From: Gemmatimonadales bacterium | GTDB lineage: Bacteria; Gemmatimonadota; Gemmatimonadetes; Gemmatimonadales; GWC2-71-9 | Length of the DNA stretch: 64,000 nucleotides | Direction of reading: 5' to 3' | Assembly: GCA_035491895.1 (NCBI GenBank) | Contig: DATJJY010000045.1 | Span: forward strand, 7,673-71,672 | Part shown: positions 3,154 to 17,511 of the stretch, in pieces | Position numbering within the stretch: position 1 is the stretch's first letter | Layout of the letters: the number at the start of each line of letters is the position of its first letter | Program-made: the position numbers and the translations under genes | The notes under the pieces: generated by a model | What the model saw: only the letters and a program-made list of their open reading frames with translations | Database searches by the model: none | Told to the model about the DNA's origin: nothing

Positions 3154-5550
3154 TCACTCGCCGTAGGGGATCCAGATGTTCTTCACCTGCGTGGCATGGC
3201 GCAGAAACTCCCGGCCTTCTCCCACGCGCGGATCGAGCCAGTCGCGCGCGCCCGGGACCCAGGTGCGCTTCATGTTCCCCGCCGACGCCGCTTCCACCGC
3301 CTTCGCGCCCGCGGCGCCACCCGCGTACCACACGGCATCGACATCCAGGTGCTCGGCCAGGATCCCGGCCAGCGCATCGGTCTCCCCCGTCACGATGTTG
3401 ATGACGCCGCCGGGAAGATCGGACGTTTCGAGCACGCTGTAGAAATCGGTGGCGGCAAGGGGATAGGGCGACGACGGGATCGCGACGACGGTGTTGCCCA
3501 CCGCGACCGCCGGAGCGACGAGCGACACGAAGCCGAGCAGCGGCGCCGCCGCCGGTGCGGCGATGCCGATCACCCCAATGGGCTCGTTCATGGCGAGCGT
3601 CACGCCGCGGATCGGCACCTGGTGCACCGCGCCGTCGTACTTGTCCGCCCAGGCGGCGTAGGTGAAGAGCCGCGCGATCGCGGCCTCGACTTCGCGCCGC
3701 GCGTCGTCGCCCGTGCCACCGGTGAGCGCCGCGATCCGGGCCGTGAACTCGCCCGTTCGCGTCGCGAGGTTTTCGGCGATGTAATACAGGATCTGCGCGC
3801 GGAGATGCCCCGCCCCGCGACCCCACTCCGCGGCGGCGTGCGCCGCTTCCACGGCGTCGCGAATATCCTTGCGGTTTCCCTCGCCGACCTCGCCGATGAT
3901 CCGTCCGTCGCCGGAGCGGATCTGGCGGCTGTAGCCCTGATCGGGGCGAACTTGCTTCCCCCCGATGTAGAGCTTGGGGGTGCGGTCGATGGGCGGCAAG
4001 GTACCAGGTGTCGGGTGTCGGGTGTCAGCGGGCACCGGGGCGGGCACAGGCGTCCCTGACACCTGACCCCCGGCACCCGACACCTCGAGTTTCAAGTACT
4101 CATACATGCCTTCGCGACCACCCTCGCGCCCGAACCCCGACTCGCGATAGCCGCCGAATCCCGAGGCGGCGTCGAACAGATTGGTCGAGTTGATCCAGAC
4201 GACGCCGGCTTTGATCTTCGGCGCGACGTCCAGGGCGAGATTGATGTTCTCCGTCCAGACGGACGCGGCGAGTCCGTACGGGGTGTTGTTCGCCAGCGCC
4301 ACCGCTTCCGCCGGCGTCCGGAACGTCATCGAGACGAGCACCGGTCCGAAGATCTCGACCTGGGCGATCGTGGCGGCGGGAGCGACGCCGGTGAACAGCG
4401 TCGGCGGATAGAAGTAGCCGTCGGTCGGGCATGCCCACGATGGCTGCCACATCGTGGCGCCCTCGGCGACCCCCGTCTCGACCAGCCCCCGGATGCGCTC
4501 GAGCTGCACCGGGGCCACGATCGCGCCCATGTCGACCGCTTTGTCGAGCGGCGAGCCGACACGCAGCTTCTCCATGCGGGTGCGCAGCTTCGCGATCAAC
4601 CGCTCGGCGATCCCTTCCTGCACCAGCATGCGCGAGCCGGCGCAGCACACCTGCCCCTGGTTGAACCAGATGGCGTCCACCACCCCCTCGACGACGCTGT
4701 CCAGGTCGGCATCCTCGAAGACGATGAAGGGACTCTTCCCCCCGAGCTCGAGCGTCAGCTTTTTCCCGGTGCCCGCCGTCGCCTTGCGAATCACCCGCCC
4801 GACCTCGGTCGAGCCGGTGAAGGCGATCTTGTCGACGCCGGCGTGCTCGACGAGCAGCGCGCCGGTCCGGCCGTCGCCCGTAATCACGTTGAGGACACCC
4901 GGCGGCAGCCCCGCGTCCTTCGCGATGTCGGCAAAGCAGAGCGCGGTGAGCGACGTGAACTCGGCCGGCTTCAGCACCACCGTGTTTCCCGCCGCCAGCG
5001 CCGGCGCGATCTTCCACGCCAGCATGAGGAGCGGGAAATTCCACGGGATGATCTGACCGACGACGCCGATGGGTCCGTATCCCGGGAATTCGACGTCGCG
5101 CAGCTGGGCCCAGCCGGCGTGATGGTAGAAGTGCCGGGCGACGAGCGGGATGTCGAGATCGCGGGTCTCGCGGATCGACTTGCCGTTGTCGAGGCTCTCG
5201 AGCACGGCGAGGAGGCGCGAGTGCTTCTGGACGGCCCGCGCCAGCGCGTACAGATGGCGGGCGCGGACGTGTCCGGGGAGCGCCGACCACGCCGGCAACA
5301 CCTCGCGCGCGGCTCGCACCGCGGCATCGACGTCGGGCGCTCCGGCCTGCGCGATGCGCGCCAGCACGGCCCGCGTCGCGGGGTTGATCGTCTCGAACGT
5401 CTCCCCTGCCGCGGGCGCGACCCACTTCCCGCCGATGAACAACCCGAACGTTCCAGTGCGCGCGCGGATCCAGTCGAGCGCGGGGCCGCTCGCCTCCGGC
5501 GCCGGCCCCCACTCCATCGTCTCGAAGATGCGGGCGACGGTCGTGGTCAC
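3154..5550 (-). CDS. Fused aldehyde dehydrogenase: complete catalytic ALDH domain, Pro-rich linker, then a second truncated ALDH-like cofactor-binding half
   Basis: 798 aa. The first ~490 aa carry ELGGKSP and FNQGQVCCAGSR (catalytic Glu and Cys) and end with ...GREGMYEYLKLE. After the linker VSGAGGQVSGTPVPAPVPADTRHPTPGTLPP, a second ALDH-type N-terminus starts (TPKLYIGGKQV...) with no catalytic Cys/Glu motifs. Confidence 0.85.
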   Translation of the reverse strand: MTTTVARIFETMEWGPAPEASGPALDWIRARTGTFGLFIGGKWVAPAAGETFETINPATRAVLARIAQAGAPDVDAAVRAAREVLPAWSALPGHVRARHLYALARAVQKHSRLLAVLESLDNGKSIRETRDLDIPLVARHFYHHAGWAQLRDVEFPGYGPIGVVGQIIPWNFPLLMLAWKIAPALAAGNTVVLKPAEFTSLTALCFADIAKDAGLPPGVLNVITGDGRTGALLVEHAGVDKIAFTGSTEVGRVIRKATAGTGKKLTLELGGKSPFIVFEDADLDSVVEGVVDAIWFNQGQVCCAGSRMLVQEGIAERLIAKLRTRMEKLRVGSPLDKAVDMGAIVAPVQLERIRGLVETGVAEGATMWQPSWACPTDGYFYPPTLFTGVAPAATIAQVEIFGPVLVSMTFRTPAEAVALANNTPYGLAASVWTENINLALDVAPKIKAGVVWINSTNLFDAASGFGGYRESGFGREGGREGMYEYLKLEVSGAGGQVSGTPVPAPVPADTRHPTPGTLPPIDRTPKLYIGGKQVRPDQGYSRQIRSGDGRIIGEVGEGNRKDIRDAVEAAHAAAEWGRGAGHLRAQILYYIAENLATRTGEFTARIAALTGGTGDDARREVEAAIARLFTYAAWADKYDGAVHQVPIRGVTLAMNEPIGVIGIAAPAAAPLLGFVSLVAPAVAVGNTVVAIPSSPYPLAATDFYSVLETSDLPGGVINIVTGETDALAGILAEHLDVDAVWYAGGAAGAKAVEAASAGNMKRTWVPGARDWLDPRVGEGREFLRHATQVKNIWIPYGE
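4005..4084. repeat. Inverted pair of heptamer runs (CAGGTGT CGGGTGT CGGGTGT ... CTGACAC CTGACCC CCGGCAC CCGACAC) inside the ALDH coding sequence
   Basis: GGTGTCGGGTG (4008-4018) is the exact complement of CACCCGACACC (4074-4084). The segment encodes precisely the inter-domain linker. Confidence 0.8.
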
Positions 5551-5551
5551 G

Positions 5552-6595
5552 TCACACCATCGGATGCCGGTGCGCGGCGCTGTAGCGGCCGGTCACGAAG
5601 TACTCGAGCTGGCGCTCGATGTCGGTGAGCAGGGCGGAGGCGCCCAGCCGGAAGCGGTCGGCGTGCAGCCAGGGGAGGCCCAGCTCTTCCTTCATGAGGA
5701 TGAGCCAATCGAGGGCACCTTTGGCGGTGCGGATCCCTCCCGCCGGCTTGAAGCCGACGGCGTGGCGGGTGCGGTCCTGGTACTCGCGAATCATCCGGGT
5801 CATGACGAGTCCCACCGGGAGCGTCGCGTTCACGGGCTCCTTGCCGGTCGACGTCTTGATGAAATCGGCGCCCGCCATCATCGCCACGAGACTCGCCCGG
5901 GCGACGTTGGTGAGCGTCGCGAGCTCCCCCGTGGCGAGGATCACCTTCACGTGCGCGTCGCCGCACGCTTCGCGGAACGCCAGGACCTCTTCGTAGAGAC
6001 CCGACCAGTCCCCGGTGAGGACGTGGGCGCGTGTGATCACGACGTCGATCTCCTCGGCGCCCGCCTCGACCGACGCGCGCACCTCGGCGAGCCGCTGCGG
6101 GAAGGGATTCAGCCCCGCCGGGAATCCCGTCGACACCGCGGCCACCGGAATGCCGCTCCCCTCGAGCGCCCGGACCGCGGTCGGGACGAGGGCGTGGTAG
6201 ACGCACACCGCGCCCACGGTGAGCCCCAGCGACTCGACGCCCAGGGCTGCTATCAGATCGTGGCGGATGGGGGCCCGCGCCTTGGCACAGAGCCGCAGCA
6301 CGTTCCCCGGTGTGTCGTCGCCCTGGAGGGTGGTGAGATCGATGCAGGTCACGGCGCGGAGCAGCCACGCGGCCTGCCATTCCTTCTTGACGGTGCGGCG
6401 TTTCGGCAACGTGGCGGCGCGGCGCTCGACGGCGCTGCGGTTGATGCGGATCGAGCGAATCAAGTCGAGGTCCAGCGGAATGCCGGGATTGCGCTCGGCA
6501 ACGACCGGCGGGCGCGCGGCGCTCCCCTCGGGCGCCCCCCTCGGTCCGGGAGCGCGCGGGCGACGTATGCGCGGATCGTCGCGTGTGACCGTCAT
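5552..6595 (-). CDS. deoC: Deoxyribose-phosphate aldolase (long form)
   Basis: CIDLTTLQGDDTPGNV, VGAVCVY, EIDVVI and the Schiff-base lysine context ADFIKTSTGK, followed by GFKPAGGIRT. The stop lies 2 nt before the ALDH start. Confidence 0.85.
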   Translation of the reverse strand: MTVTRDDPRIRRPRAPGPRGAPEGSAARPPVVAERNPGIPLDLDLIRSIRINRSAVERRAATLPKRRTVKKEWQAAWLLRAVTCIDLTTLQGDDTPGNVLRLCAKARAPIRHDLIAALGVESLGLTVGAVCVYHALVPTAVRALEGSGIPVAAVSTGFPAGLNPFPQRLAEVRASVEAGAEEIDVVITRAHVLTGDWSGLYEEVLAFREACGDAHVKVILATGELATLTNVARASLVAMMAGADFIKTSTGKEPVNATLPVGLVMTRMIREYQDRTRHAVGFKPAGGIRTAKGALDWLILMKEELGLPWLHADRFRLGASALLTDIERQLEYFVTGRYSAAHRHPMV

Positions 6596-6656
6596 GCTGT
6601 CGGGAGAATGCGCGGGACGATGGCAAAAGTCAAAGGCGGTTCATAGCTTGGGGGCC

Positions 6657-7400
6657 GTGCCACCGCCCGCATCCCGCTGCCTCGTCGTGGCCGACGCCCA
6701 CCTGGGCCAGGTCCCCGAGTCCGTCGCTCGCGCCTTCCATACCTTCCTCGATACGGTGCCGCAGCCGGGCGACGAGCTGGTCGTCAACGGCGATCTGTTC
6801 GACTTCTGGTTCGAGTACGGCACCGTGGTGCCGCGCCGCCACCTCGCGACCGTCATGAAGCTCGCCGGCCTCGTGCAGCGCGGCATTCCGGTCACGTTCC
6901 TGGGCGGCAACCACGACCGCTGGGGCGGCGACTTCCTGCGCCGGGACATGGGGATCGGCTACCACTCCGGCGCTGCCGAGCTCGTCCTCGCGGGCCGGCG
7001 GGCGCTCGTGGTGCACGGCGACGGACTGACCGAACAGCACTGGAGCGGCGCCCTGCTCCACTGGCTGCTGCGCCAGCCGCTGACCATCGCTGTGTTCCGC
7101 ATGCTGCACCCCGCGATCGGGTTCTGGATCGCCGACCGGTTGTCGGGAACGCTGGCCGACAGCACCAAGGACAAGGCGGTGCTCGACCGGGCTGAAGCGG
7201 CGCAGGCGGCGTACGCGCGGGCGCTGCTCGAGCAGCGGACGGACCTGTCGCTCGTCGTGATGGCGCACACGCACCGTCCCCGGCTCGAGGATGTGGGAAA
7301 CGGACGCGCGTACGTGAACCCGGGAGCCTTTCTTGACGGTGGCCGCTATGCGGTGATTACGGCGGAGTCAGTCGATCTGAAGACTTTCACAGACGTCTGA
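6657..7400 (+). CDS. lpxH: UDP-2,3-diacylglucosamine hydrolase-like metallophosphoesterase
   Basis: CLVVADAHLG, VVNGDLFDFWFEY, FLGGNHDRWGG, VHGDG and MAHTHRP are calcineurin-like motifs in LpxH order. The track ORF (6219) over-extends across deoC. Plausible starts are GTG 6657 or TTG 6648. Confidence 0.65.
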   Translation: MPPPASRCLVVADAHLGQVPESVARAFHTFLDTVPQPGDELVVNGDLFDFWFEYGTVVPRRHLATVMKLAGLVQRGIPVTFLGGNHDRWGGDFLRRDMGIGYHSGAAELVLAGRRALVVHGDGLTEQHWSGALLHWLLRQPLTIAVFRMLHPAIGFWIADRLSGTLADSTKDKAVLDRAEAAQAAYARALLEQRTDLSLVVMAHTHRPRLEDVGNGRAYVNPGAFLDGGRYAVITAESVDLKTFTDV

Positions 7401-7425
7401 CGTCAGACGTCTGACGTCAGAATCA
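7391..7425. repeat. 7-nt periodic array AGACGTC/TGACGTC x4.5, with a perfect 24-nt palindrome at 7390-7413
   Basis: The sequence reads AGACGTC TGACGTC AGACGTC TGACGTC AGAATCA. CAGACGTCTGACGTCAGACGTCTG equals its own reverse complement. The stop of lpxH-like (7398-7400) and the stop of murI (7423-7425) both lie inside the array. Confidence 0.9.
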
Positions 7426-8223
7426 CCCGAGCGAGACGACCTCCACCTCTTGCAGTCGTTCGCCGAGGAACCGTGCTCCCACATTGCGGAAGTGCGGCTC
7501 GTCGTCCGACACGACGAACTCGTGCGTGACGTGGCTGTCGTCCGACGTCGCCAGTCCGCCCGCCGCGAGCTGGCGCACCACCTCCGCCGCCGTCTCTTCC
7601 GCGCTGTCGATCAGACGCACCGTCGGCCCCAGCACCCGGGAGAGCAGCGGCTTGAGGAGGGGATAGTGGGTGCAACCGAGGACCAGGACGTCGACGTCCG
7701 CGGCGAGAAGCGGCTCGAGGTACTCGCGCGCGACGAGCTCCGTCGCGGGATGGTCGAACCACCCTTCCTCGATGAGCGGCACGAAGAGCGGGCACGCCTG
7801 CGAGATGACGGTCGCGTCGGGGCGCAGCGCCTTGATGGCGCGCTCGTAGGCACCGCTCGCGATCGTGCCCGCGGTCCCGATCACGCCGATGCGGCCGCTC
7901 CGGGTCGCTCTGGTGGCCGCCCACGACCCCGGCTCGATCACGCCGATGACGGGGACCGGCGAGCGCGAGCGCAGCTCGTCGAGGGCATGGGCGGTGCTCG
8001 TGTTGCAGGCGACGACGACCATCTTCACGCCGCGTTCCAGCAAATACTGGAGGATCTCGGCGCTGTAGCGACGCACCGTCTCGGGGGACTTCGGACCATA
8101 GGGAACGCGCGCCGTATCGCCGAAGTACACGACCGACTCCCGCGGCAGGTGCTCGAAGATCGCGTGCGCGACGGTGAGCCCGCCGATGCCGGAGTCGAAG
8201 ACGCCGAGCGGAGCGGCGTTCAC
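7423..8223 (-). CDS. murI: Glutamate racemase
   Basis: LGVFDSGIGGLTV, VYFGDTARVPYG, VVACNTSTA and LGCTHYPLL. The real start is GTG 8223, overlapping the upstream stop as GTGA. The first ~108 aa of the track ORF are spurious. Confidence 0.85.
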   Translation of the reverse strand: MNAAPLGVFDSGIGGLTVAHAIFEHLPRESVVYFGDTARVPYGPKSPETVRRYSAEILQYLLERGVKMVVVACNTSTAHALDELRSRSPVPVIGVIEPGSWAATRATRSGRIGVIGTAGTIASGAYERAIKALRPDATVISQACPLFVPLIEEGWFDHPATELVAREYLEPLLAADVDVLVLGCTHYPLLKPLLSRVLGPTVRLIDSAEETAAEVVRQLAAGGLATSDDSHVTHEFVVSDDEPHFRNVGARFLGERLQEVEVVSLG

Positions 8224-8690
8224 GGACGCGGCAAGGGGAAGCTCACGCCGACGCCTCCCGGCAGCGCCTGGACCTTCAGGTCTTTGGGAAAATCCCTCAG
8301 ATGCGCCGCGACGAACGCCTCGGCGCCCGCGAAGAGATGGTTGAACCCCCAGAGCACGAGCCAGTCCTGCACCTCCTGGCGCTTGGCGTGCAGGTTCGGG
8401 AGGTTTGCTTCCTTGAAGTAGTTCGCCTCCTGCTGCGCTTTCAGGGTCATGTACATCGTCGTCCCTTCCCAGACCACGAAGATCGCCCCGGTGACGTTGC
8501 GGCCGGTGGCGGCCTGTCCCCAGCCGGGGAGCAGCAGAGAGCGCCACAGCGCGCCGATCGGGCCGACGAGATGCGAGGTGTCGGCGGGCGCCGCGGCGCG
8601 AGGCTGCGTGTCTTGCGGCGTCTGGGCGGACAGGCGGACGGCCGGTCGGGCGGTCAAAGTCAAAACCAATAGGATCGACAGCCCTTTCAT
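8220..8690 (-). CDS. Small secreted/membrane-associated hypothetical protein (possibly DUF5683-like, LLPGWGQ motif)
   Basis: ATG 8690 gives MKGLSILLVLTLTARPAVRLSAQ (signal), then ...LLLPGWGQAATGRN...; 156 aa. It is the C-terminal part of the over-extended track ORF 8220..9845. ATGA overlap with the upstream stop (8687-8690). Confidence 0.6.
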   Translation of the reverse strand: MKGLSILLVLTLTARPAVRLSAQTPQDTQPRAAAPADTSHLVGPIGALWRSLLLPGWGQAATGRNVTGAIFVVWEGTTMYMTLKAQQEANYFKEANLPNLHAKRQEVQDWLVLWGFNHLFAGAEAFVAAHLRDFPKDLKVQALPGGVGVSFPLPRP

Positions 8691-9580
8691 TGTGCCACCA
8701 GCACGTTCAGACACCCCGGCTCCACCGTCACGGTGCACTCCCGCGTCTCCGGCGTGCGCAGCTCTCCATCGAGATGCAACAGCAACGGCGCCTCCGGCGA
8801 ACGGATCGTGAGCGAGCGCGTGCGAACTATCGTCACTTCTTTCATTCCGCCGTGCGTTCCTCGCATCACACGCGGCAGCGCGGCGAGGAACCGCGGCAAA
8901 CCGATCTTCCGAATGATACAGATGTCGAGCAGGCCGTCCGCAGGGTCGGCGCCCGGAGCGAACCGGTAGCTGCCCCCCGCGGTCGTCCCGTTGCACACCT
9001 CGACCATCATCATGTTCCCCTGCTCGCCGTGCGAGTCGGTGCGGACCTCGAGCAGCGGCGGCCGGAAGCCGGCAAAGGTCCGCAGCACCGGCACCAGGTA
9101 AGAGAGAAACCCCTGCAACCCCGGCATCGCGTTGCGGGTCCGGACGACGGCGGGCCCGAAGCCGAATCCCAGCGTGTTCACGAAGTACTCGCCCAGCACC
9201 TTCCCCGCATCGAAGCGGCGCGGTTGGGCGGCGACGAGACGCGTCACCGCGCGGTCGACGTCGTGGCGGTACACGCCCGTGAGCTTGGCGAAGTCGTTCC
9301 CGGTGCCGAGCGGCACGACGCCGAGCGGCGCACTCGAGCCCGCCGCCAGGAGTCCGTTCGCCACCTCGTGTACCGCTCCGTCCCCGCCCACGGCGATAAT
9401 CCGCCGCGCGCCGTCCTGAACGGCCCGAGCGGCCAGCTCGGTGGCCTGCCCCGGCCGCTCGGTCTCGACCAGCTCGACCGTCCAACCGCCGCGGCGAAAC
9501 GCCCGCACGAGCGGCTCGCGCGCCCGCCGCGCGGCGCCGCCCCCGGCGGCAGGGTTGAGAATGACGTGAGCATCCGGCAC
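8687..9580 (-). CDS. Diacylglycerol-kinase-family lipid kinase (YegS/BmrU-like)
   Basis: VILNPAAGGG, a GGDGAVHEVANGL nucleotide-binding motif, PLGTGNDFA, and a C-terminal LHLDGE. Confidence 0.8.
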   Translation of the reverse strand: MPDAHVILNPAAGGGAARRAREPLVRAFRRGGWTVELVETERPGQATELAARAVQDGARRIIAVGGDGAVHEVANGLLAAGSSAPLGVVPLGTGNDFAKLTGVYRHDVDRAVTRLVAAQPRRFDAGKVLGEYFVNTLGFGFGPAVVRTRNAMPGLQGFLSYLVPVLRTFAGFRPPLLEVRTDSHGEQGNMMMVEVCNGTTAGGSYRFAPGADPADGLLDICIIRKIGLPRFLAALPRVMRGTHGGMKEVTIVRTRSLTIRSPEAPLLLHLDGELRTPETRECTVTVEPGCLNVLVAQ

Positions 9581-9612
9581 GCTGGAGGGAACAACCTACT
9601 GCACCGACCCGA

Positions 9613-9969
9613 CTACTGCAGGTAATGCTCGTTCCAGGCGACTTCGAACTCCCATTTGCACGAGGGACAGGGCATGCGCTTCGTCCCCGCCGAAAGCGGG
9701 GCCCGCTCGGTGCAGCTGGGACAGACGGCGTATTCGCTCGTGAAGCCCGCCGGCGGCGTCCCGATCCAGCTGGCCCGTTGCTGGACGACCGTCCACTTCG
9801 CAGGCGGCCGCTTGACGAATTCGAGCATCGCCTTGGCGACCGCAACCGGTTTCTTGTTCACCTCGAGGGTGGCATGCAGGTCATCTTGTTTCAGGACACG
9901 GTACCACGCGCCGCGCCGGATGTGCAGGTTCACGTTCTCGCACAAGCGGGCGTACAGGGGCTCAGGCAC
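9613..9969 (-). CDS. Hypothetical zinc-ribbon protein, paralogue B
   Basis: 118 aa: MPEPLYARLCENVNLHIRRGAWYRV... with a C-terminal CPSC-x15-CPSCKWEFEVAW. It is clearly paralogous to the adjacent CDS. Confidence 0.6.
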   Translation of the reverse strand: MPEPLYARLCENVNLHIRRGAWYRVLKQDDLHATLEVNKKPVAVAKAMLEFVKRPPAKWTVVQQRASWIGTPPAGFTSEYAVCPSCTERAPLSAGTKRMPCPSCKWEFEVAWNEHYLQ

Positions 9970-9984
9970 GTCGGAGTCCTCGCG

Positions 9985-10341
9985 TCAGGTCAGATACGCT
10001 TCGTCCCAGGCGACCTCGAATTCGAACTTGCAATAGGCGCACCGCAGGCGGCGCATCCGGGTCGGCAGGGCGGCCCGCTCGCTGCAGCTCGGGCACACGC
10101 CGTAGCGCTCGGTGAAGTTGCGCGGTGACTTCTTCGCGTCCTCGGGACGCTGCGTCACGACGGTCCAGCGCGGCGGCGGGCGCTTGACGATTTCGAGGAA
10201 CGCCGCGGCCACGACCACGTTGCGGCCGTTCACCTCGAGCATCGCCTTGAGGCCTTCGACACGAACGACCTTGTACCACGCGCCGCGGCGCAACCGCACG
10301 TTGATGTTCTCGCGGAGCCTGGCGTAGAGGCGTTCGGGCAT
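9985..10341 (-). CDS. Hypothetical zinc-ribbon protein, paralogue A
   Basis: MPERLYARLRENINVRLRRGAWYKV... with CPSC-x14-CAYCKFEFEVAW. The start was taken at the second Met (10341) by alignment with paralogue B. Confidence 0.6.
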   Translation of the reverse strand: MPERLYARLRENINVRLRRGAWYKVVRVEGLKAMLEVNGRNVVVAAAFLEIVKRPPPRWTVVTQRPEDAKKSPRNFTERYGVCPSCSERAALPTRMRRLRCAYCKFEFEVAWDEAYLT

Positions 10342-10367
10342 GGCGGCTGGGACCAATTATGGGGAAA

Positions 10368-10398
10368 CGGCGTCGAGCGTCAAATTCTCGAGACGCCG
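10368..10398 (-). terminator. Possible hairpin just 3' of the tRNA
   Basis: CGGCGTC(GAG) at 10368-10377 pairs with (CTCga)GACGCCG at 10387-10398, giving a 7+3 bp stem. On the minus strand it is followed only by a weak GTTTCCCC. Confidence 0.3.
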
Positions 10399-10401
10399 GT
10401 G

Positions 10402-10495
10402 TGGCGGGAGCGTGTAGGAATCGAACCTACCGAAGCCCTTGCGAACCCCAGCTGGTTTTGAAGACCAGTCAGACCACCAGGCCCAATCCGCTCCC
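10402..10495 (-). tRNA. selC: tRNA-Sec (anticodon UCA)
   Basis: 94 nt: GGGAGCGGATTGGGCCTGGTGGTCTGACTGGTCTTCAAAACCAGCTGGGGTTCGCAAGGGCTTCGGTAGGTTCGATTCCTACACGCTCCCGCCA. Hand fold: 7 bp plus G:A in an 8-position acceptor, and a 6-bp D stem (UGGGCC/GGUCUG with G-U pairs) with a 4-nt loop. The anticodon arm is CUGGU-CU[UCA]AA-ACCAG. The variable arm is 7 bp with a GCAA tetraloop, the T stem is 5 bp, and the 3' end is GCCA. Confidence 0.85.
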
Positions 10496-10774
10496 TCGCG
10501 CCACCCGCAAGCCGCTGAGAATCTCACTAGCTGCCCCGCTCCTCCGCCATATGTGAAGGCGGGCGAGCGCGCTTGCGGAACGGTCGTGCGAGGATCCGAC
10601 AGTCTTTAGTTAATGACCGGTTTTCGGCGGTGCGCTGCCGCACACTTGCACCGCGACTTGTGGCCTGGACGCCACGCTTTCCGGTCCTGCCCGGCGGTCG
10701 TCAGGCGGAATATCAGTAACGCAAAATGGCCCAATTGTTGCAGTTACGCCTTGCGACCCCTAGGAGAATTGCGG

Positions 10775-13291
10775 ATGCGCCCGGTCCAACACCGGCTCCT
10801 GTGCCAGGCGGTTGCCGTGACCCTGGCCCTCGGTTTCGTCGCTTGCACCGACACCAACGATCCCCTGCGCCCCGGCGTGCAGGCGTTGTATACGACACCC
10901 ACCGGTCTCCTCACCGCCAATCCGCCGCAGATCTTCGTCGGCGCCGGCGACATTTCGAGCTGCAGCAACAGCGGCGACGAGGCGACCGCCAAACTGCTCG
11001 ACGCGATCCCCAGTCCGGCGACGGTCTACAACATCGGCGACGACGCCTACGACAACGGCTCGTCGTCCGAGTTCAACAACTGCTATAACCCGACGTGGGG
11101 CCGGCACAAGTCCCGCACCAAGCCCACCCCGGGAAATCACGAGTACAACTCTAACGGGGCAGCTCCGTACTACGCCTACTTCGGGGCCGCGGCAGGTCCT
11201 TCCGGGCGGGGCTACTACAGCTTCGATCTGGGCGCCTGGCACATCCTCTCGCTCAACAGCAACGTCTCGTCGTCGTCCGGCTCGGCGCAGGATACCTGGC
11301 TCCGGGCCGATCTCGCCGCGCACCCGAACCAGTGCATCCTGGCGTACTACCATCACCCGCTGTACTCCTCGACGGCCACCTACACCAGCGTCCGGGGGCT
11401 CGTGAACGCCCTGTACGCCTACCACGCGGACCTGATCCTGAACGGGCACCGGCATTTCTATGAACGGCTGAAGCCGATGGATCCGACCGGCAAGTCCGAC
11501 CCGACGAACGGTGTCCGTGAGATCATCGCGGGGATGGGTGGAATTGGCAGTGGCAGCCCCAACTCCAGCTATTCCCTCAGTGAGGCGAGCAACGGCAACA
11601 CTTTTGGTGTACTGAAGCTCTACCTCTACGACGACAGCTACGCGTGGAAGTTCGTTCCCGTCGCGGGGAAGACGTACACCGATTCGGGAAGCACCGCCTG
11701 CCACTCGTCTGGTGGCGGCGGGGGTGGCGGGGGTGGCGGGGTGTCGGCGTCGAACTCGACGGTCTCGGCCAATCCGACGTCCTTCACCGCGGGCAGCGGC
11801 TCGTCCACGATCACCGTGACGGCGAAGGACGGCAACGGCAATACGATCAGCGGCGCCAGCGTGACGGTCACATCGTCCGGGACCGGGAACACCCTCTCCC
11901 CGGCTTCCGGCTCGACCAACTCCAGCGGCGTGTTCACGAGCGCGCTTACTTCGACCGTGGCGGCGACGAAGACCGTGTCCGCCACCATCAACGGCACCGC
12001 GATCACACAGACGGCCACCGTCACCGTGAATCCCGCGTCGAGCGTGTCGGCCTCGTTGTCCACCGTCGGGGCGTCGCCGACGTCGTTCACCGCGGGTGGG
12101 AACAGCACCATCACCGTCACCGTCAAGGACGGGAGCGGGAACCCGCTGAGCGGGATCCCGGTGACTCTCTCGGCCACCGGAGCCGGCAACAGCTTCACCC
12201 AGCCAGCGGCCACGAACGGGAGCGGCGTCACGACGGGGACGTTCGGCTCCACCGGCGCGGGCTCGCATACGGTGACGGCCGTCGCCGGCGGCGTGACGCT
12301 GAATCAGCAACCGGTCGTGTCGGTGAGCGCCGGATCGGCAAACGCAGGAAACTCCAGCGTGACCGCCCAGCCGACAGCGATCGCCGTGGGGACTGGCTCG
12401 TCGACGATTACCGTGACGGTCAAGGATCAGTTCGGGAATCCCATGAGCGGCTCGAACGTGGTGCTCGCGGCATCCGGCTCCGGGAATACGCTCACGGGGG
12501 GCGGCGCGACGAACGCCAGCGGAGTCGCGACGGGCACCCTCAGCTCGACCGTCATGGAGACGAAGGTCGTCTCGGCCACCGCCGACGGCGTCGCCATCTC
12601 GCAGACTGCGTCGGTGTCGGTCACGAACCAACCGCCGCCCGGAATCACCCAGACGCTGCTCACCTCGGGCCACGACCCGACCAACACGTCGACCTTCACT
12701 ACGGCGTCCATCACGCCGGCGGCCAACGCCCTCGTGACCGTCGCGGTATTGACGCACCAGTCGTCGTCGGCCGCGCCGAACCCGACGTTGACCGGCGGCG
12801 GGATGGCGAGCTGGACGGTCGTGGCCAGCGTCGCCTACGATGGCGCCACGCCGCTCGATCGCCTGACCATCTACCGGGCGATGAGCGCCGCCCCCGGCAG
12901 CGGGCCGATCACGATCACCACGAGCGTCACGGTCTCCAATTGTCAGTGGATCGTGTCGCAGTGGAGCGGTGTCGACCAATCAGGGACGAACGGCTCGGGC
13001 GCTATCGTGCAGACGGCCTCCGCATCCGGCGCCGCGGTGACGACCCTGACAGCCGCGCTCGCGTCCTTCGCGAGCGGCAATGATGTAGCGTATGGTGCGT
13101 TCGGAGTGGCGAACGCTACGGCGGTCGTGACGGCCGGGAGCGGGTTCACCACGATCGATCAGCAGCCGTCCGGAGAAGGCTCGGTCGGCGATCTCTTCGC
13201 GGAATGGGCCGTGAACACTCCCGCCGTGAATGCGACCTGGCCCAGCAAGCCCGCGGGCGCCCTGGGCGTCGAGATCAAGGCTGGTCCCTGA
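10775..13291 (+). CDS. Giant lipoprotein: calcineurin-like metallophosphoesterase + poly-Gly + 3 Ig-like (Big-type) repeats + unassigned C-terminal module
   Basis: Start ATG 10775 follows AGGAGA (10762-10767), not 10613. Lipobox LALGFVAC|TD. Motifs GDISSCS, GDDAYDNG, GNHEY, HHPLYSS and GHRHFYER. About 10 Gly codons at 11711-11740. Three ~97-aa repeats, then the 215-aa tail. Confidence 0.85.
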   Translation: MRPVQHRLLCQAVAVTLALGFVACTDTNDPLRPGVQALYTTPTGLLTANPPQIFVGAGDISSCSNSGDEATAKLLDAIPSPATVYNIGDDAYDNGSSSEFNNCYNPTWGRHKSRTKPTPGNHEYNSNGAAPYYAYFGAAAGPSGRGYYSFDLGAWHILSLNSNVSSSSGSAQDTWLRADLAAHPNQCILAYYHHPLYSSTATYTSVRGLVNALYAYHADLILNGHRHFYERLKPMDPTGKSDPTNGVREIIAGMGGIGSGSPNSSYSLSEASNGNTFGVLKLYLYDDSYAWKFVPVAGKTYTDSGSTACHSSGGGGGGGGGGVSASNSTVSANPTSFTAGSGSSTITVTAKDGNGNTISGASVTVTSSGTGNTLSPASGSTNSSGVFTSALTSTVAATKTVSATINGTAITQTATVTVNPASSVSASLSTVGASPTSFTAGGNSTITVTVKDGSGNPLSGIPVTLSATGAGNSFTQPAATNGSGVTTGTFGSTGAGSHTVTAVAGGVTLNQQPVVSVSAGSANAGNSSVTAQPTAIAVGTGSSTITVTVKDQFGNPMSGSNVVLAASGSGNTLTGGGATNASGVATGTLSSTVMETKVVSATADGVAISQTASVSVTNQPPPGITQTLLTSGHDPTNTSTFTTASITPAANALVTVAVLTHQSSSAAPNPTLTGGGMASWTVVASVAYDGATPLDRLTIYRAMSAAPGSGPITITTSVTVSNCQWIVSQWSGVDQSGTNGSGAIVQTASASGAAVTTLTAALASFASGNDVAYGAFGVANATAVVTAGSGFTTIDQQPSGEGSVGDLFAEWAVNTPAVNATWPSKPAGALGVEIKAGP
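11741..12643 (+). repeat. Three in-frame ~290-nt coding repeats (bacterial Ig-like domains) in lipoprotein 1
   Basis: The protein pattern S(T/S)VxAxPTxxxAGxxSTITVTVKDxxGNPxSGxxVxLxAxGxGN...GVxTGTxxSTxxxxKxVxAxxxGVxIxQxxxVSV recurs three times. Confidence 0.8.
12621..13291 (+). repeat. 671-nt direct repeat, copy 1 (3' end of lipoprotein 1), colinear with 16456-17126
   Basis: Both copies are exactly 671 nt from TCACGAACCAACCGCCGCCCGGAATCACCCAGACG to GGTCCCTGA, with only scattered substitutions by eye (roughly 90% or better, not counted). Confidence 0.85.
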
Positions 13292-13310
13292 CCCCTAGGA
13301 GAAACAACGG

Positions 13311-16300
13311 ATGAGCCCGGTCCAAAACCGCCTTCTGTGCCAGACGGTTGCCGTGACCCTGGCCCTCGGTTTCGTCGCCTGTACCGATACCAACGATCCC
13401 CTCCGCCCCGGCGTGCAGGCGTTGTACACCACACCCACCGGTCTCCTCACCGCCAATCCGCCGCAGATCTTCGTCGGCGCGGGCGACATTTCGAGCTGTA
13501 GCAACACCGGCGACGAGGCCACCGCCAAACTGCTCGACGCGATCCCCGATCCGGCGACGGTCTACAACATTGGGGACGACGCCTACAACAACGGCACCAC
13601 CGCCGAATTCGCCTGTTACAACTCGACGTGGGGGCGCCACAAGTATCGCACCCAACCCACCTCGGGCAATCACGAGTACAACTCCTCAGGCGCCGCCGGC
13701 TACTTCCAGTACTTCGGCGCCGCTGCTCATCCATCGAGCGTTTCGGACTCGGCCGGTTTCTATAGCTTCAATCTGGGCGCCTGGCACATCATCTCGCTCA
13801 ACAGCGACATCACGCGATCGGCGGGCTCCAAGCAAGACAAGTGGCTGGCGGCCGACTTGGCGGCACACCCGAATCAATGCACGCTCGCCTACTGGCATCA
13901 CCCGCTCTACTCCTCCACCGGCGGGACCGGCTCGGGGGGCGTGAGCCTCACGTCGATGCGGCCGTTCTGGGACCGGTTGTACGCGGCGCATGCTGACCTC
14001 GTTCTGAACGGGCACCGCCATTTCTACGAGCGGATGGCGTTGATGAAGCCCGACGGCAGCGCCGATCCGACCAACGGCATCCGGGAAATCATCGCGGGTT
14101 CGGGGGGCATCGGCGGCGGCAGCGAGACGAATCTCTTCCCGCTGCATCAGACCGGCGACGGCAGCACGTTCGGCGTGCTGAAGCTGTACCTGTACGACGA
14201 CAGCTACGCCTGGAAATTCATCCCCGTCGCTGGGAAGACCTACACCGACTCGGGGAGCACCGCCTGCCACTCCTCCGGCGGCGGTGGTGGCCCTGGCCCC
14301 GTCTCGGCGACGAACTCTACGGTCTCGGCCAATCCGACATCGTTCACCGTCGGGAGCGGCTCGTCCACGATCACGGTCACCGCCAAGGACGCCAACGGCA
14401 ACACGCTGAGCGGCTCGAACGTCGTCCTGGCGTCGACGGGGAGCGGCAACACCTTCACCCCGGCCTCGGGCACCACCAACGGCAGCGGCGTCTTCACGAG
14501 CACGTTCACGTCGAGCGTCGCCGAAGGCAAGACGATTTCGGCGAACATCGACGGCACCGCGATCACCCAGACGGCGTCCGTCACCGTCAACTCTTCGGGA
14601 GGCGGGGGCGGCGGCACGATCACCCAGACGCTCCTGACTTCGGGCGGCAACGGCGTCAATCAGAGCGTCTACACGACGGCCTCGATCTCTCCCGCGGCGA
14701 ACGCCCTCGTCACCGTTGCCATCCGGATGCGGCGCTCGAGCGGCGCCCTGACCCCGACGGTTACGGGCGGCGGCATGTCGAGCTGGACGCAGGTGGCGAG
14801 CCTCGACTACGACCCGCTGTCGACCCCGACCTCCCGGCTCCTGGTGTTCCGCGCAATGAGCGGGGCGCCCGGCAGCGGGCCGGTCACCATCACGTTCTCG
14901 AGCAGTATCTCGAACGTGGAGTGGAGTGTCTCCCAGTGGACCGGGGTCGACCAGACGGGAACGAACGGCTCGGGGGCCATCGGACAGACCGGATCCATCG
15001 GCGCCGATGCCACCACGTCGCTCTCCAAGGCGCTGGCGGCGTTCGGCAACGCCAACAACGTCGGCTTCGGCGTCGTCGGTGCGAGCACGGCGGCCCCCGC
15101 CGTAACGCCCGGCAGCGGTCTCACCGAGATCTCGGAGCCGACCTCGGGTGAATCGACGCTGCTCGAGACCGAGCAGGGCGTGAATGTGAGCACGGTCGCG
15201 GCCACCCTCAGCAAGTCGGCCAACGCCGGCCTGCTCGCCATCGAGATCAAAGCAGGCGCGGGCGGCGGGCCCGCGGTCTCCGCAGCCAATTCGACCGTCG
15301 GGGCCAGCTCGCCCATTACAGCCGGTGGGAGCCCGTCGACAATCACGGTGACAGCGCGGGACGGCAGCAACAATCCCATCAGCGGCGCCACCGTCGTCCT
15401 TGCGGCCACCGGCTCCGGTAATACCCTCACCCAGCCGTCCGCCACCACCAACGGCAGCGGCGTCGCGACCGGGACGCTGGCATCGACCGTGGCCGAGGAC
15501 AAGACGATTTCGGCCACGATCAACGGCGTCGCGATCACCCAGACCGCCACGGTGACCGTCAGTCCTGGAGCCGTGTCGGCCTCCACTTCCACGGTCGGAG
15601 CGACCTCGCCGATTACCGCCGGGAGCGGCACGTCGACGATCACCGTCACGGCAAAGGACGCGAACAACAACCTGATCAGCGGTGCCACCGTCGTCCTAGC
15701 CGCTACAGGAACGGGAAACACGCTGACCCAGCCGTCTGGCACGACGGTGAACGGCGTCGCGACGGGTTCCCTCGCCTCGACCGATGCGGAAACCAAGACC
15801 GTCTCGGCGACGATCAACGGCACGTCGATCACGCAGACGGCATCGGTCGTCGTCAACCCGGCGGGCCCCGCAGTTTCCGCTGCGAATTCAACCGTCGGTG
15901 CAACGTCGCCGATCACGGCGGGCAGCGGCACCTCGACGATCACGGTCACCGTCATGGACGGCAGCAACAATCCGCTGAGCGGCGTCTCCGTGACCCTTTC
16001 GGCGACCGGCATCGGAAACACGATCACCCAGCCTGCGGCAGCGACGGATGTCAACGGCGTGACGACCGGCTCTTTGAGCTCGACGGCGGCCGGGACCAAG
16101 ACCATCACCGCGGTGGCCGGCGGCGTCACGCTCACTCAGCAGGCCGTCGTGACGGTGACCGCGGGACCGGCTGACGCCGGTCAGTCGACCGTCGCGGCGG
16201 CGCCGGCGTCGATCCTCGTCAACACGGGATCGTCCACCATCACCGTTACCGTGAAGGACGCCTTCGGCAATCCGGTGAGCGGCTCGACGGTCCTCGTAGC

Positions 16301-17126
16301 GTCGACGGGGAGCGGCAACACCGTCACGGGTCCCTCGGGAACCACCGGGTCGAACGGCGTCGCGACCGCGACCTTCAGCTCGAGCGTCGCCGAAGGGAAG
16401 ACGCTGTCAGCGACTGCCGACGGCACCGCGATCACGCAAACCGCATCGGTGACGGTCACGAACCAACCGCCGCCCGGAATCACCCAGACGCTGCTCACCT
16501 CGGGCCACGACCCGACCAACACATCGACCTTCACCACCGGCTCCATTGCGCCGGCGCCGAACACGCTGGTCACCGTCGCGGTGCTGACGCACCAGGCCTC
16601 CGCGGCGGCGCCCGATCCAACATTGACCGGCGGCGGAATGGCAAACTGGCAGGTGGTGGCGAGCGTCGCCTACGACGGCGCTACGCCGCTCGACCGGCTG
16701 ACCATCTACCGGGCGATGAGCGCGGCGCCGGGCAGTGGGGCGATTACGATCAAGACGAGTGTCACCGTCTCCAATTGTCAGTGGATCGTGTCCCAGTGGA
16801 GCGGTGTCGATCAATCGGGGACGAACGGCTCGGGCGCTATCGTCCAGACGGCCTCCGCATCCGGCGCCGCGGTGACGACCCTGACGGCCGCGCTCGCGTC
16901 CTTCGCGAGCGGCAATGACGTGGCGTATGGTGCGTTCGGAGTGGCGAACCCGACGGCGGTCATAACGGCGGGAAGCGGGTTCACGACGATCGATCAGCAG
17001 CCGTCGGGCGAGAGCTCGGTCGGCGATCTCTTCGCGGAATGGGCCCTGAACACCCCCGCCGTGACCGCGACCTGGCCCAGCAAGCCCGCCGGCGCCCTGG
17101 GCGTCGAGATCAAGGCGGGTCCCTGA
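13311..17126 (+). CDS. Giant lipoprotein paralogue: metallophosphoesterase + Gly hinge + 1 Ig-like repeat + internal copy of tail module + 4 Ig-like repeats + terminal tail module
   Basis: 1271 aa, 19 nt after the previous stop, with the same CCCCTAGGAGA RBS block. The lipobox and phosphoesterase motifs match the paralogue. The internal module (14619-15256) ends ...LLAIEIKAG, like the terminal ...LGVEIKAGP. Confidence 0.85.
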   Translation: MSPVQNRLLCQTVAVTLALGFVACTDTNDPLRPGVQALYTTPTGLLTANPPQIFVGAGDISSCSNTGDEATAKLLDAIPDPATVYNIGDDAYNNGTTAEFACYNSTWGRHKYRTQPTSGNHEYNSSGAAGYFQYFGAAAHPSSVSDSAGFYSFNLGAWHIISLNSDITRSAGSKQDKWLAADLAAHPNQCTLAYWHHPLYSSTGGTGSGGVSLTSMRPFWDRLYAAHADLVLNGHRHFYERMALMKPDGSADPTNGIREIIAGSGGIGGGSETNLFPLHQTGDGSTFGVLKLYLYDDSYAWKFIPVAGKTYTDSGSTACHSSGGGGGPGPVSATNSTVSANPTSFTVGSGSSTITVTAKDANGNTLSGSNVVLASTGSGNTFTPASGTTNGSGVFTSTFTSSVAEGKTISANIDGTAITQTASVTVNSSGGGGGGTITQTLLTSGGNGVNQSVYTTASISPAANALVTVAIRMRRSSGALTPTVTGGGMSSWTQVASLDYDPLSTPTSRLLVFRAMSGAPGSGPVTITFSSSISNVEWSVSQWTGVDQTGTNGSGAIGQTGSIGADATTSLSKALAAFGNANNVGFGVVGASTAAPAVTPGSGLTEISEPTSGESTLLETEQGVNVSTVAATLSKSANAGLLAIEIKAGAGGGPAVSAANSTVGASSPITAGGSPSTITVTARDGSNNPISGATVVLAATGSGNTLTQPSATTNGSGVATGTLASTVAEDKTISATINGVAITQTATVTVSPGAVSASTSTVGATSPITAGSGTSTITVTAKDANNNLISGATVVLAATGTGNTLTQPSGTTVNGVATGSLASTDAETKTVSATINGTSITQTASVVVNPAGPAVSAANSTVGATSPITAGSGTSTITVTVMDGSNNPLSGVSVTLSATGIGNTITQPAAATDVNGVTTGSLSSTAAGTKTITAVAGGVTLTQQAVVTVTAGPADAGQSTVAAAPASILVNTGSSTITVTVKDAFGNPVSGSTVLVASTGSGNTVTGPSGTTGSNGVATATFSSSVAEGKTLSATADGTAITQTASVTVTNQPPPGITQTLLTSGHDPTNTSTFTTGSIAPAPNTLVTVAVLTHQASAAAPDPTLTGGGMANWQVVASVAYDGATPLDRLTIYRAMSAAPGSGAITIKTSVTVSNCQWIVSQWSGVDQSGTNGSGAIVQTASASGAAVTTLTAALASFASGNDVAYGAFGVANPTAVITAGSGFTTIDQQPSGESSVGDLFAEWALNTPAVTATWPSKPAGALGVEIKAGP
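15266..16478 (+). repeat. Four in-frame ~300-nt coding repeats (Ig-like domains) in lipoprotein 2
   Basis: PAVSAANSTVGA(S/T)SPITAGSG(T/S)STITVT... recurs four times. A fifth, N-proximal copy lies at about 14301-14590. Confidence 0.8.
16456..17126 (+). repeat. 671-nt direct repeat, copy 2 (3' end of lipoprotein 2)
   Basis: See 12621-13291. Confidence 0.85.
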
Positions 17127-17127
17127 G

Positions 17128-17511
17128 CTAGCGGATCGCGATCGCGTCGATCTCCACGCGGGCACCCTTCGGCAACCCGGCCGCCTGTACGGTCGAGCGC
17201 GCCGGGCGGTGCCCGCCGAAGTGTCGGGCGTATACCTCGTTCATCGCCGCGAAATCCGCCATGTCGATGAGATAGACCGTCGTCTTCACCACCTGGCCGA
17301 GCGACGATCCCGAGGCAGCGAGCACGGCGGTGAGGTTTTGCAGCACCTGCTCCGTTTGCTCCGCGACGGTCGCGCCGACGAGCTCTCCCGACTTCGGGTC
17401 GAGCGCCACCTGCCCCGCCGTGTATACCGTGTCGTCGGTGACGATCGCCTGGCTGTAAGGACCGATCGCCTTGGGTGCCTTGTCGGTCGCTACCGGATTG
17501 AGCGTCTTCAT
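17128..17511 (-). CDS. ridA: RidA/YjgF-family reactive-intermediate deaminase
   Basis: APKAIGPYSQAI...YTAGQVALDP...TTVYL.DM.DF...N.VY...RPARSTVQ...LPKGARVEIDAIA. Confidence 0.85.
   Translation of the reverse strand: MKTLNPVATDKAPKAIGPYSQAIVTDDTVYTAGQVALDPKSGELVGATVAEQTEQVLQNLTAVLAASGSSLGQVVKTTVYLIDMADFAAMNEVYARHFGGHRPARSTVQAAGLPKGARVEIDAIAIR

Follow-up and report, generated by a model that had tools for sequence, protein, structure and literature searches.

Here we describe P1 and P2, two neighbouring genes on a 64,000-nucleotide (nt) stretch of DNA from an uncultured soil Gemmatimonadales bacterium (contig DATJJY010000045.1; the whole stretch is called the window below). Each encodes a large predicted lipoprotein that combines a phosphatase head of the purple acid phosphatase (PAP) type, a glycine run, a rod of immunoglobulin (Ig)-like repeats and one or two copies of a module of around 215 amino acids (aa), which we call T. 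We propose that P1 and P2 are surface-anchored, phosphate-scavenging enzymes with a ligand-binding T tip, expressed from a sigma-54 operon at a locus that shuffles protein modules. Taken as a whole, we give this reading a probability of roughly 55%.

Two genes built from the same modules

The two coding sequences (CDSs) lie on the same strand 19 nt apart and encode 838 and 1271 aa, as stated in a preliminary description of this DNA. We set the order of the modules with our own module hidden Markov models plus Pfam, and aligned the repeats. The resulting features are:

10775..13291 (+): P1 CDS, 838 aa; lipobox, PAP head, Gly11, Big_1 x3, T
10762..10767 (+): ribosome-binding site of P1, AGGAGA, read from the sequence
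10775..10846 (+): P1 predicted signal peptide with lipobox LALGFVA-C24 (PROSITE PS51257; R2 and R7)
10940..11710 (+): P1 PAP-like head, aa 56-312; predicted ligands D59, D89, Y92, N121, H193, H225, H227
11711..11743 (+): P1 Gly11 hinge, aa 313-323
11744..12631 (+): P1 Big_1 Ig-like repeats I1-I3, aa 324-619
12644..13288 (+): P1 terminal T module, aa 624-838
13311..17126 (+): P2 CDS, 1271 aa; lipobox, PAP head, G5PGP, Big_1, G6, T(a), Big_1 x4, T(b)
13297..13302 (+): ribosome-binding site of P2, AGGAGA, inside the 19-nt P1-P2 gap
13476..14276 (+): P2 PAP-like head, aa 56-322; ligands D59, D89, Y92, N120, H196, H235, H237, from motif positions
14304..14597 (+): P2 Big_1 repeat I1, aa 332-429
14619..15260 (+): P2 internal T module Ta, aa 437-650; 52-56% identical to the terminal T modules
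15273..16466 (+): P2 Big_1 repeats I2-I5, aa 655-1052
16479..17123 (+): P2 terminal T module Tb, aa 1057-1271; 92.6% aa and 89% nt identity to the P1 T

The window has a G+C content of around 70%, and for this reason long spurious open reading frames (ORFs) are found on every strand. P1 and P2 are genuine genes, not products of chance in GC-rich DNA, because their G+C content at third codon positions is 0.86-0.87 and hundreds of homologues exist for both. The long antisense ORFs across the region were dismissed as by-products of GC-rich repetitive coding sequence. A longer P1 ORF from 10613 was judged unlikely, since a conserved promoter element (10727-10741, described below) and the ribosome-binding site both fall within the extension. 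The P1 start codon is accordingly placed at 10775, which is 20 nt downstream of the block start given before (10755); the block end at 17126 stands. The ribosome-binding context CCCCTAGGAGAA is identical ahead of P1 and P2.

Pfam finds Big_1/Invasin_D3 in three stretches of P1 (Big_1 1.1e-33, Invasin_D3 3.1e-31) and in five of P2 (Big_1 4.9e-54), in agreement with the three or five Ig-like repeats counted earlier. The reported glycine run is likewise present, as Gly11 in P1 and as G5PGP and G6 in P2. The P1 hinge is encoded by a perfect, in-frame 9-nt tandem repeat (GGCGGGGGT x2.8, 11717-11741, + strand), and slippage in this repeat could alter the hinge length.

The order of parts, previously taken to be the same in both proteins, differs. 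P2 holds a second, internal copy of T that had been overlooked, and because this copy lies between them the five Ig repeats are split 1 + 4 (head-Ig-T-Ig4-T). Identity between P1 and P2 is a mosaic from module to module: 94.5% for signal and linker, 71% for the head, 67-74% for the corresponding Ig repeats (I1-I1, I2-I4 and I3-I5) and 56% between the P1 T and Ta. Given this mosaic, P2 resembles a protein of the P1 type into which a Ta-Ig-Ig block was inserted.

Neither whole protein has a match in NCBIfam. A literature search for the architecture and for lipoprotein PAPs of bacteria found no characterised protein with this module order, in line with the preliminary description; the only relevant item was the soil PAP-like phytase Pho18.

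The head is predicted to be a PAP-type phosphatase

The head had been described as a calcineurin-like metallophosphoesterase core, and this is supported: Pfam Metallophos (PF00149) matches P1, though not P2, with 36.1 bits against a cut-off of 21.5 (1.2e-8), and the heads of both proteins match PAPs with their ligands intact. In a sequence search of the PDB (phmmer), both heads match only PAPs. The best match is the wheat PAP phytase 6GIT (6e-9 for P1, 4.5e-9 for P2), followed by kidney-bean PAP. A profile of 28 homologues reaches 1e-15 against the PAPs of the PDB, with five PAP motif blocks aligned.

All of the motifs quoted in the preliminary description are present, both the lipobox LALGFVAC-TD and the head motifs GDISSC, GDDAY.NG, GNHEY, HHPLYSS and GHRHFYER. 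The head motifs align to GDLG/GDLSY/GNHE/MHSP/GHVHAYER of kidney-bean PAP. We looked for loss of metal-ligand residues on alignment and found all seven retained; across the family, the seven ligand columns are kept in 25-28 of the 28 homologues.

The predicted structure gives a similar picture. The AlphaFold2 (AF2) model of the head has a predicted local distance difference test (pLDDT) score of 88, and its top 29 Foldseek matches in the PDB are all PAPs from plants and mammals (E ~1e-13, template modelling (TM) score 0.65-0.73). GAP50, Rv0805 (2e-8), GpdQ (2e-7) and PhoD (3e-7) rank lower. Judged by sequence and model together, the head is a PAP-type binuclear metallophosphatase with a complete ligand set. 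Since sequence, profile and Foldseek matches all favour PAPs, we rejected a PhoD-like head (3e-7 for PhoD versus ~1e-13 for PAPs). Thus, of the domain matches expected in the preliminary description, Big_1 appears in both proteins, Metallophos appears in P1 and nothing is found for the tail; the PhoD-like match does not appear and the P2 head goes unmatched by Pfam.

With the known PAPs (1KBP/4DHL of kidney bean, 6GIT wheat phytase and 1QHW, mammalian TRAP) the heads share the five blocks GDxx/GDxxY/GNHE/xHxP/GHxHxYER, all seven ligands including the Tyr, and the predicted fold; PAPs are their best sequence, profile and structure matches. Nevertheless, the identity is only ~19-23%. Plant PAPs have an N-terminal fibronectin-like domain that the P1 and P2 heads are without, and the P1 and P2 heads also differ in their bacterial origin, their lipobox anchor and their fusion to an Ig rod and T.

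The head subfamily is very large (>7,800 matches). Heads of the same subfamily in other bacteria are 54-59% identical and fused to Big_2, PKD or CBM96 modules. For example, Gemmatimonadota proteins of ~477 aa combine Big_2 with Metallophos and Actinobacteria proteins combine CBM96/DNRLRE with Metallophos. Like P1 and P2, these carry Ig-like or carbohydrate-binding modules; unlike them, they are short, usually have one accessory domain and are without T. Automatic annotation names members 'alkaline phosphatase' (the ~477-aa Gemmatimonadota proteins) or, at JGI, 'acid phosphatase type 7', and we found no experimentally characterised member. That PAP-like enzymes of bacteria can act as phytases is shown by the PAP-like Pho18, which comes from a soil metagenome and has phytase activity (PMC6355987).

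T is a domain family shared with phages and toxins

The tail of ~215 aa could not be placed in the preliminary description, and our searches agree. T has no sequence match in Pfam, NCBIfam or the PDB (for the PDB up to E<=10). The AF2 model of T, built from an alignment of 36 homologues, has a pLDDT of 95.4, a predicted TM score of 0.93, 13 strands and one short helix. Foldseek against the PDB returns noise only, with the PRD1 coat protein as best match (E 3e-3, TM 0.25). T is therefore confidently predicted to be an all-beta fold without a counterpart in the PDB. A jelly-roll, lectin or carbohydrate-binding module (CBM) identity was considered and dropped, having no supporting PDB match. The module-by-module structure search suggested earlier thus places the head among PAPs; for T it yields nothing in the PDB and only predicted phage proteins.

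Against BFVD, a set of predicted phage structures, Foldseek finds 75 matches to T at E<=1e-3. The best, A0A6J5Q4D9, comes from an uncultured Caudovirales phage and is uncharacterised (E 1.2e-19, TM 0.92, root-mean-square deviation 1.4 A). It is followed by 'minor tail proteins' of Mycobacterium and Gordonia phages and by rhizobiophage proteins, with TM scores of 0.6-0.8. T is also encoded on 80 IMG/VR viral contigs at 31-43% identity. A stand-alone T gene shares a contig with a capsid gene, and at another viral locus, one of the 80, the neighbours match tail-fibre and virion-structural PHROGs. None of 50,697 deposited phage genomes was matched in a tblastn search with bacterial and phage-like T. 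In PHROGs only a weak match of two stand-alone T proteins was found, to phrog_38872 (unknown function), and the C-terminal parts of the phage T-carrying proteins have no Pfam match. These phage tail-region proteins (A0A6J5Q4D9 and the 'minor tail protein' of Mycobacterium phages Tweety, Gaia and Shauna1) share the T fold with P1 and P2; unlike P1 and P2, they have T at the very N-terminus and no signal peptide, and none is functionally characterised.

We found 239 homologues of T. A profile search of 1.84 billion cluster representatives finds T in 1,607 at E<=1e-30 and in 5,068 at E<=1e-3, the latter a count that may include non-T matches because the profile carried ~55 flanking Ig-linker positions. 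Among the 143 best representatives, T stands alone in 62, as T-T in 35 and as T-T-T in 14; others combine it with head and Ig. T thus occurs singly or in tandem, and at either end of a protein or inside it, which together with the pLDDT of 95.4 argues that it is an autonomous domain. From 209 domains we derived the signature T20-x-S-x2-P-x2-N-x-L ... G-x-G-x2-T-W ... R78 ... W102 ... G-x-N-G-x2-A-x2-Q123 ... G-x-G-F ... E210, and all three T copies of the window carry the family signature and profile match. In P1 numbering, R78, Q123 and E210 are R701, Q746 and E833. A look-up of clusters with large T proteins yielded neither names nor taxa.

T is also fused to CBM_4_9 and PKD, and one protein of T-head-T layout combines it with Big_2, Metallophos and PKD. 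In two further proteins, two or three tandem T modules lie within Rhs and SpvB/TcdB-type toxins with Ntox33 or Ntox44 tips (P0133, aa 1144-1813; P0146, aa 1466-1915). By sequence and predicted fold, the T family is common to phage tail-region proteins, Rhs/Tc toxins and secreted enzymes.

A Gemmatimonadales paralogue (L035, 9833-14122, + strand) reads lipobox-T-Ig3-T-Big_2 x2 and ends in a C-terminal galactose/glyoxal-oxidase-like Kelch propeller. The phosphatase is therefore not the only enzyme that the Ig/T scaffold carries. Common paralogues of ~1,330 aa (for example L029, 7235-11251, + strand) have the layout T-Big_2 x3-X-Big_7-Ig2-T, in which X (~270 aa, aa ~560-830) is without a Pfam match. 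The neighbours of a T-only lipoprotein (P0056) are housekeeping genes and uninformative.

Because the same Ig/T scaffold carries different catalytic heads, a pattern of targeting modules, we infer that T is a non-catalytic targeting or binding tip. Alternatively, T could itself be an enzyme that cleaves glycans or esters, like the depolymerase domains of phage tails, which would make P1 and P2 bifunctional polymer degraders. Phage tail proteins often carry enzymatic domains, and a polar and charged set (R78, Q123, E210, N116, N147 and an acidic residue at 111) is kept from phage to bacteria at ~35% identity. Yet no enzyme fold in the PDB is similar (best TM 0.25-0.33), and tandem T-T and T-T-T arrays, as well as the flanking of diverse true enzymes, are typical of binding or scaffold modules. 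We consider a catalytic T distinctly improbable.

The predicted lipid anchor places the head next to the membrane

The lipobox signal reported earlier agrees with the PROSITE PS51257 rule, {DERK}(6)-[LIVMFWSTAG](2)-[LIVMFYSTAGCQ]-[AGS]-C, with the Cys at 15-35 and a Lys or Arg within the first seven residues. Both proteins satisfy it (AVTLAL-GF-V-A-C24; R2 and R7 in P1, R7 in P2). The Cys is conserved across the family, where it ends an uncharged hydrophobic region in 77 distinct N-termini with A, T or S at -1. The strict rule holds in 47 of 94 family N-termini; the others mostly have Thr at -1 or Pro near the Cys. Accordingly, P1 and P2 are predicted to be N-terminally lipidated.

The head starts ~30 residues after the lipobox Cys. 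It follows that the enzyme would be membrane-proximal and that the Ig rod would hold T, not the enzyme, away from the membrane. This module order contradicts the earlier picture of an enzyme held off the membrane on a stalk. The reverse order, lipobox-Ig6-head, exists in paralogues of related genomes.

Surface exposure of both proteins is likewise a prediction from sequence. After the Cys, the family has T, S or V at +2, D or E at +3 in 46 of the 77 N-termini and D at +4 in 26 of them. The Bacteroidetes lipoprotein surface-export signal consists of polar and then acidic residues, such as SDDDD or SDDFE (PMC5080379). The family residues at +2 to +4 resemble this signal, which is a lead for surface exposure and no proof. 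Surface lipoprotein enzymes of Bacteroidetes (Sus-like systems) are like P1 and P2 in having a lipobox followed by polar and acidic residues (C-T/S-D-D/T...) and in combining modular extracellular enzyme and binding domains; unlike in those systems, no adjacent TonB-dependent transporter or SusD-like gene is found at the locus. Gemmatimonadota and Bacteroidetes both belong to the Fibrobacteres-Chlorobi-Bacteroidetes (FCB) superphylum.

Type IX secretion was rejected as a route: the C-terminal 215 aa have no Pfam match to a type IX sorting domain (Por_Secre_tail type) even at E<=1, and T also occurs at N-terminal and internal positions. No outer-membrane beta-barrel or autotransporter barrel domain is matched by Pfam in P1 or P2.

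The lack of such a sorting domain or barrel would also suit lipoproteins that face the periplasm, on the inner membrane or the inner leaflet of the outer membrane, as diderm lipoproteins do by default. P1 and P2 would then be periplasmic phosphatases with Ig and T as spacers or docking parts, and a conserved T could dock to a conserved envelope component. On a rough estimate from typical domain sizes, however, three to five Ig repeats, one or two T modules and a head exceed the normal periplasmic width. The acidic +3/+4 residues moreover resemble the Bacteroidetes export signal (PMC5080379), and T has extracellular partners (phage tail region, Rhs toxins, CBM). We give little credence to a periplasmic location.

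A conserved slot between selC and ridA with exchangeable modules

The locus is flanked by:

10402..10495 (-): tRNA-Sec gene (selC), left neighbour (ARAGORN; Rfam 75.7 bits)
17128-17511 (-): RidA (Endoribonuclease L-PSP family), converging on the P2 stop codon

This agrees with the position between selC and ridA given before, and no mobility gene or integrase was seen around the locus. With one genome per species, we found 76 family loci, nearly all of them in metagenome-assembled genomes of uncultured Gemmatimonadales and often with several paralogues per genome; head-only relatives are found in Chloroflexi. The architectures are combinatorial (with H for head and I for Ig repeat: H-I3-T, H-I-T-I3-T, H-T, H-I8-T, T-I2-T, I6-H and others).

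The order murI - dagK-like - two small Cys-rich genes - tRNA-Sec - family gene(s) - ridA - fhs - tatD - secF is present in at least 14 loci, and tRNA-Sec adjoins the family gene in all 14 syntenic loci scanned. The slot holds one short gene (L001, L002, L004), one long gene (L008, L016, L024, L047, L013, L037, L027), two tandem genes (L006, L010 and the window) or one inverted copy (L025). Thus the pair is less an accessory block, as it had been called, than the occupant of a slot conserved in at least 14 Gemmatimonadales genomes, of which only architecture and copy number vary. With slot and flanks conserved in this way and no integrase seen, an island integrated at selC was rejected.

The two small Cys-rich genes lie at 9613-9969 (-) and 9985-10356 (-) in the window, between a dagK-like gene and tRNA-Sec. 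They encode paralogues of 118 and 123 aa that are 55-60% identical, each with two CxxC pairs, possibly zinc-ribbon proteins. One or both are kept in all syntenic loci, and Pfam gives a weak IBR_1 match only. PADLOC defence models match neither these two proteins nor P1 and P2. In L031 the slot holds a split gene (H-I ORF at 9941-11431, T-I3-T ORF at 11514-13784), for which a frameshift, a pseudogene and an assembly error are all possible explanations. Some syntenic loci have 2-4 kb of extra DNA before the family gene (L010 ~4500-7880, L047 ~7490-9930, L025 ~5360-9980), located between the small Cys-rich genes or tRNA-Sec and the family gene.

Within the slot, the modules differ in history. The P1 head shares 86-88% identity with heads at the short-gene loci, and the P2 head 79-85% with those at the long-gene loci. 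As each is closer to these than P1 and P2 are to each other, the two head lineages are old. For signal/linker and terminal T, P1 and P2 are 93-95% identical, above their identity to any orthologue. At the nucleotide level, the 5' ends (10775-10939 versus 13311-13475) are 93% identical and the heads 74%. The sequences therefore indicate that P1 and P2 were homogenised at both ends by gene conversion, since both ends are more alike between the copies than are the heads or the orthologues.

The internal T is a coherent orthologous class with 62-73% identity. The terminal T falls into types that are 70-88% or only 49-58% identical, even where the flanking fhs is 95% identical (L008). Because the tip differs next to such similar flanks, the terminal T is replaced like a cassette between close relatives.

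Swapping of the tip between close relatives is expected of specificity determinants, and could mean that P1 and P2 are primarily adhesins. The Big_1 rod and T tip would then attach to particles, polymers or cells and the phosphatase would be secondary; the head may act on the surface that is bound, on extracellular DNA or on polymers, or be mainly a membrane-proximal base. A Big_1/Invasin_D3 rod with a distinct C-terminal cap mirrors invasin and intimin, where a tandem Big_1/Invasin_D3 rod presents a distinct C-terminal domain. In those proteins the anchor is an N-terminal beta-barrel and the tip is C-type-lectin-like; P1 and P2 instead have a predicted lipid anchor with an enzyme, and a tip of the T fold without a PDB match. 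Paralogues of the T-I-I-T type have rod and tip without a phosphatase, and the phage tail-region proteins and Rhs toxins that carry T target cells. The head, on the other hand, keeps all catalytic ligands and is 76-88% identical between orthologues, and in P1-type orthologues it is conserved as well as or better than the rod. Head and T also recur in independent arrangements (H-I-T, H-T, T-H-T), which argues that catalysis matters. An adhesin with a secondary phosphatase is thus conceivable, and in our view doubtful.

A conserved sigma-54-type promoter element

Upstream of P1 we found a putative promoter:

10727..10741 (+): sigma-54-type (-24/-12) promoter element TGGCCCAATTGTTGC, 34 nt upstream of the P1 start codon

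The sigma-54 consensus is TGGCAC-N5-TTGC, with GG at -24 and GC at -12, and TGGCCCAATTGTTGC has the core and spacing of such a promoter. Eleven syntenic loci all keep its GG and TTGC, while their flanking intergenic DNA diverges. Thirteen family genes, nearly all selC-linked, have the element at a distance of 43-64 nt before the start (background 0.01 per 200 nt), and save for one further weak match it is not seen before other paralogue types. From the P1 element, transcription would be expected to begin near 10752-10754. The window as a whole holds three TGGC-N7-TTGC matches, within the chance expectation of 1.5 +/- 1.2; the other two are at 42209-42223 (+) and 57237-57251 (-).

There is no sigma-70-like site on the + strand. 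The 19-nt gap between P1 and P2 has no promoter element, and for this reason the two genes are probably one operon. We infer that the operon is transcribed in a sigma-54-dependent manner. The window ORFs that we scanned include no activator gene. At ~10625-10675 (+), ~60-100 nt upstream of the -24/-12 element, a block GTGCGCTGCCGCACAC...TGCACCG.GACTTGTGGCC is shared by close relatives only, and more distant loci have GTTGC-N6-GCAAC-like palindromes in the region upstream of the element. Block or palindrome may be the site of an enhancer-binding protein. Sigma-54 has been argued to control the bacterial exterior (PMC3162934), an idea that a surface lipoprotein would fit.

Other genes of the window

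The remaining window genes that we scanned are housekeeping genes, as had been stated: IF-2, NusA, EPSP synthase, UvrD, GroEL, MutL, SerS, MurI, Fhs, TatD and SecF. Two further genes were noted:

6201-7397 (+): a gene for a further, unrelated calcineurin-like metallophosphoesterase (Metallophos 6e-8), located 3.4 kb upstream of the locus
692-2776 (-): HEAT repeats fused to a C-terminal cyclophilin-type peptidyl-prolyl isomerase, an unusual combination

Discussion

We propose the following mechanism for P1 and P2. Transcription would start from a sigma-54-dependent promoter and would therefore need an enhancer-binding activator. The proteins would be exported to the cell surface, where the order outward from the lipid anchor would be phosphatase head, glycine hinge, Big_1 rod and distal T, with a second T within the rod of P2. 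The T tip would bind a polymeric, particulate or cell-surface ligand, and the membrane-proximal phosphatase would release orthophosphate from phosphoesters near the cell's own uptake systems. The locus evolves by module shuffling, gene conversion at both ends and replacement of the terminal T.

Several observations weigh against this proposal. In 54 of the 143 representatives T is at residue 2-4 without a signal peptide, and in phage proteins it is at the extreme N-terminus; the N-terminus of a tail fibre is usually the virion-docking end and not the receptor-binding end. The polar set of T (R78, N116, Q123, N147 and E210) is conserved at 78-96% over 209 domains, which is unusual for a variable receptor-binding tip and fits a common ligand, a catalytic role or a structural role equally. 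The match to the Bacteroidetes export signal is only partial, and this signal is known from Bacteroidetes, not Gemmatimonadota. Pfam PF00149 does not report the P2 head, either in the full protein or alone (13383-14276, E<=1), though this head has all of the motifs and 71% identity to the above-threshold P1 head; the miss is a caution for domain-based annotation of the head subfamily. Finally, control by phosphate limitation, considered in the preliminary description, is not indicated: the conserved promoter is of the sigma-54 type, and sigma-54 control does not point to phosphate starvation and gives no support for simple PhoB-type control.

The phosphatase head and the Ig rod are of known kinds, and surface-anchored metallophosphoesterases are not new in principle. 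What is new is the architecture, the T family with its occurrence in phage tail-region proteins and Rhs toxins, the conserved sigma-54 footprint, and the shuffling, apparent conversion and tip swapping at a fixed slot. A more speculative view, which we hold to be unlikely, is that T is an undescribed fold and family acting as an exchangeable specificity module, and that the slot by selC is a sigma-54 'display' locus shuffling Ig/T cassettes like phage receptor-binding domains. If true, the locus could retarget a surface phosphatase to different substrates or cells. Alternatively, T could compete with or decoy phage adsorption, phages carrying the same module.

The T family comprises more than 1,600 clusters, with no Pfam model and no solved structure; naming it and solving its structure would improve thousands of phage and bacterial annotations. 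The conserved sigma-54-type promoter provides a concrete handle on regulation. The Gemmatimonadota are an abundant soil phylum with almost no cultured members, and their extracellular phosphorus acquisition is essentially unknown. The family described here is a large, lineage-expanded one of PAP-type phosphatases, predicted to be lipid-anchored, and could contribute to the turnover of organic phosphorus in soil.

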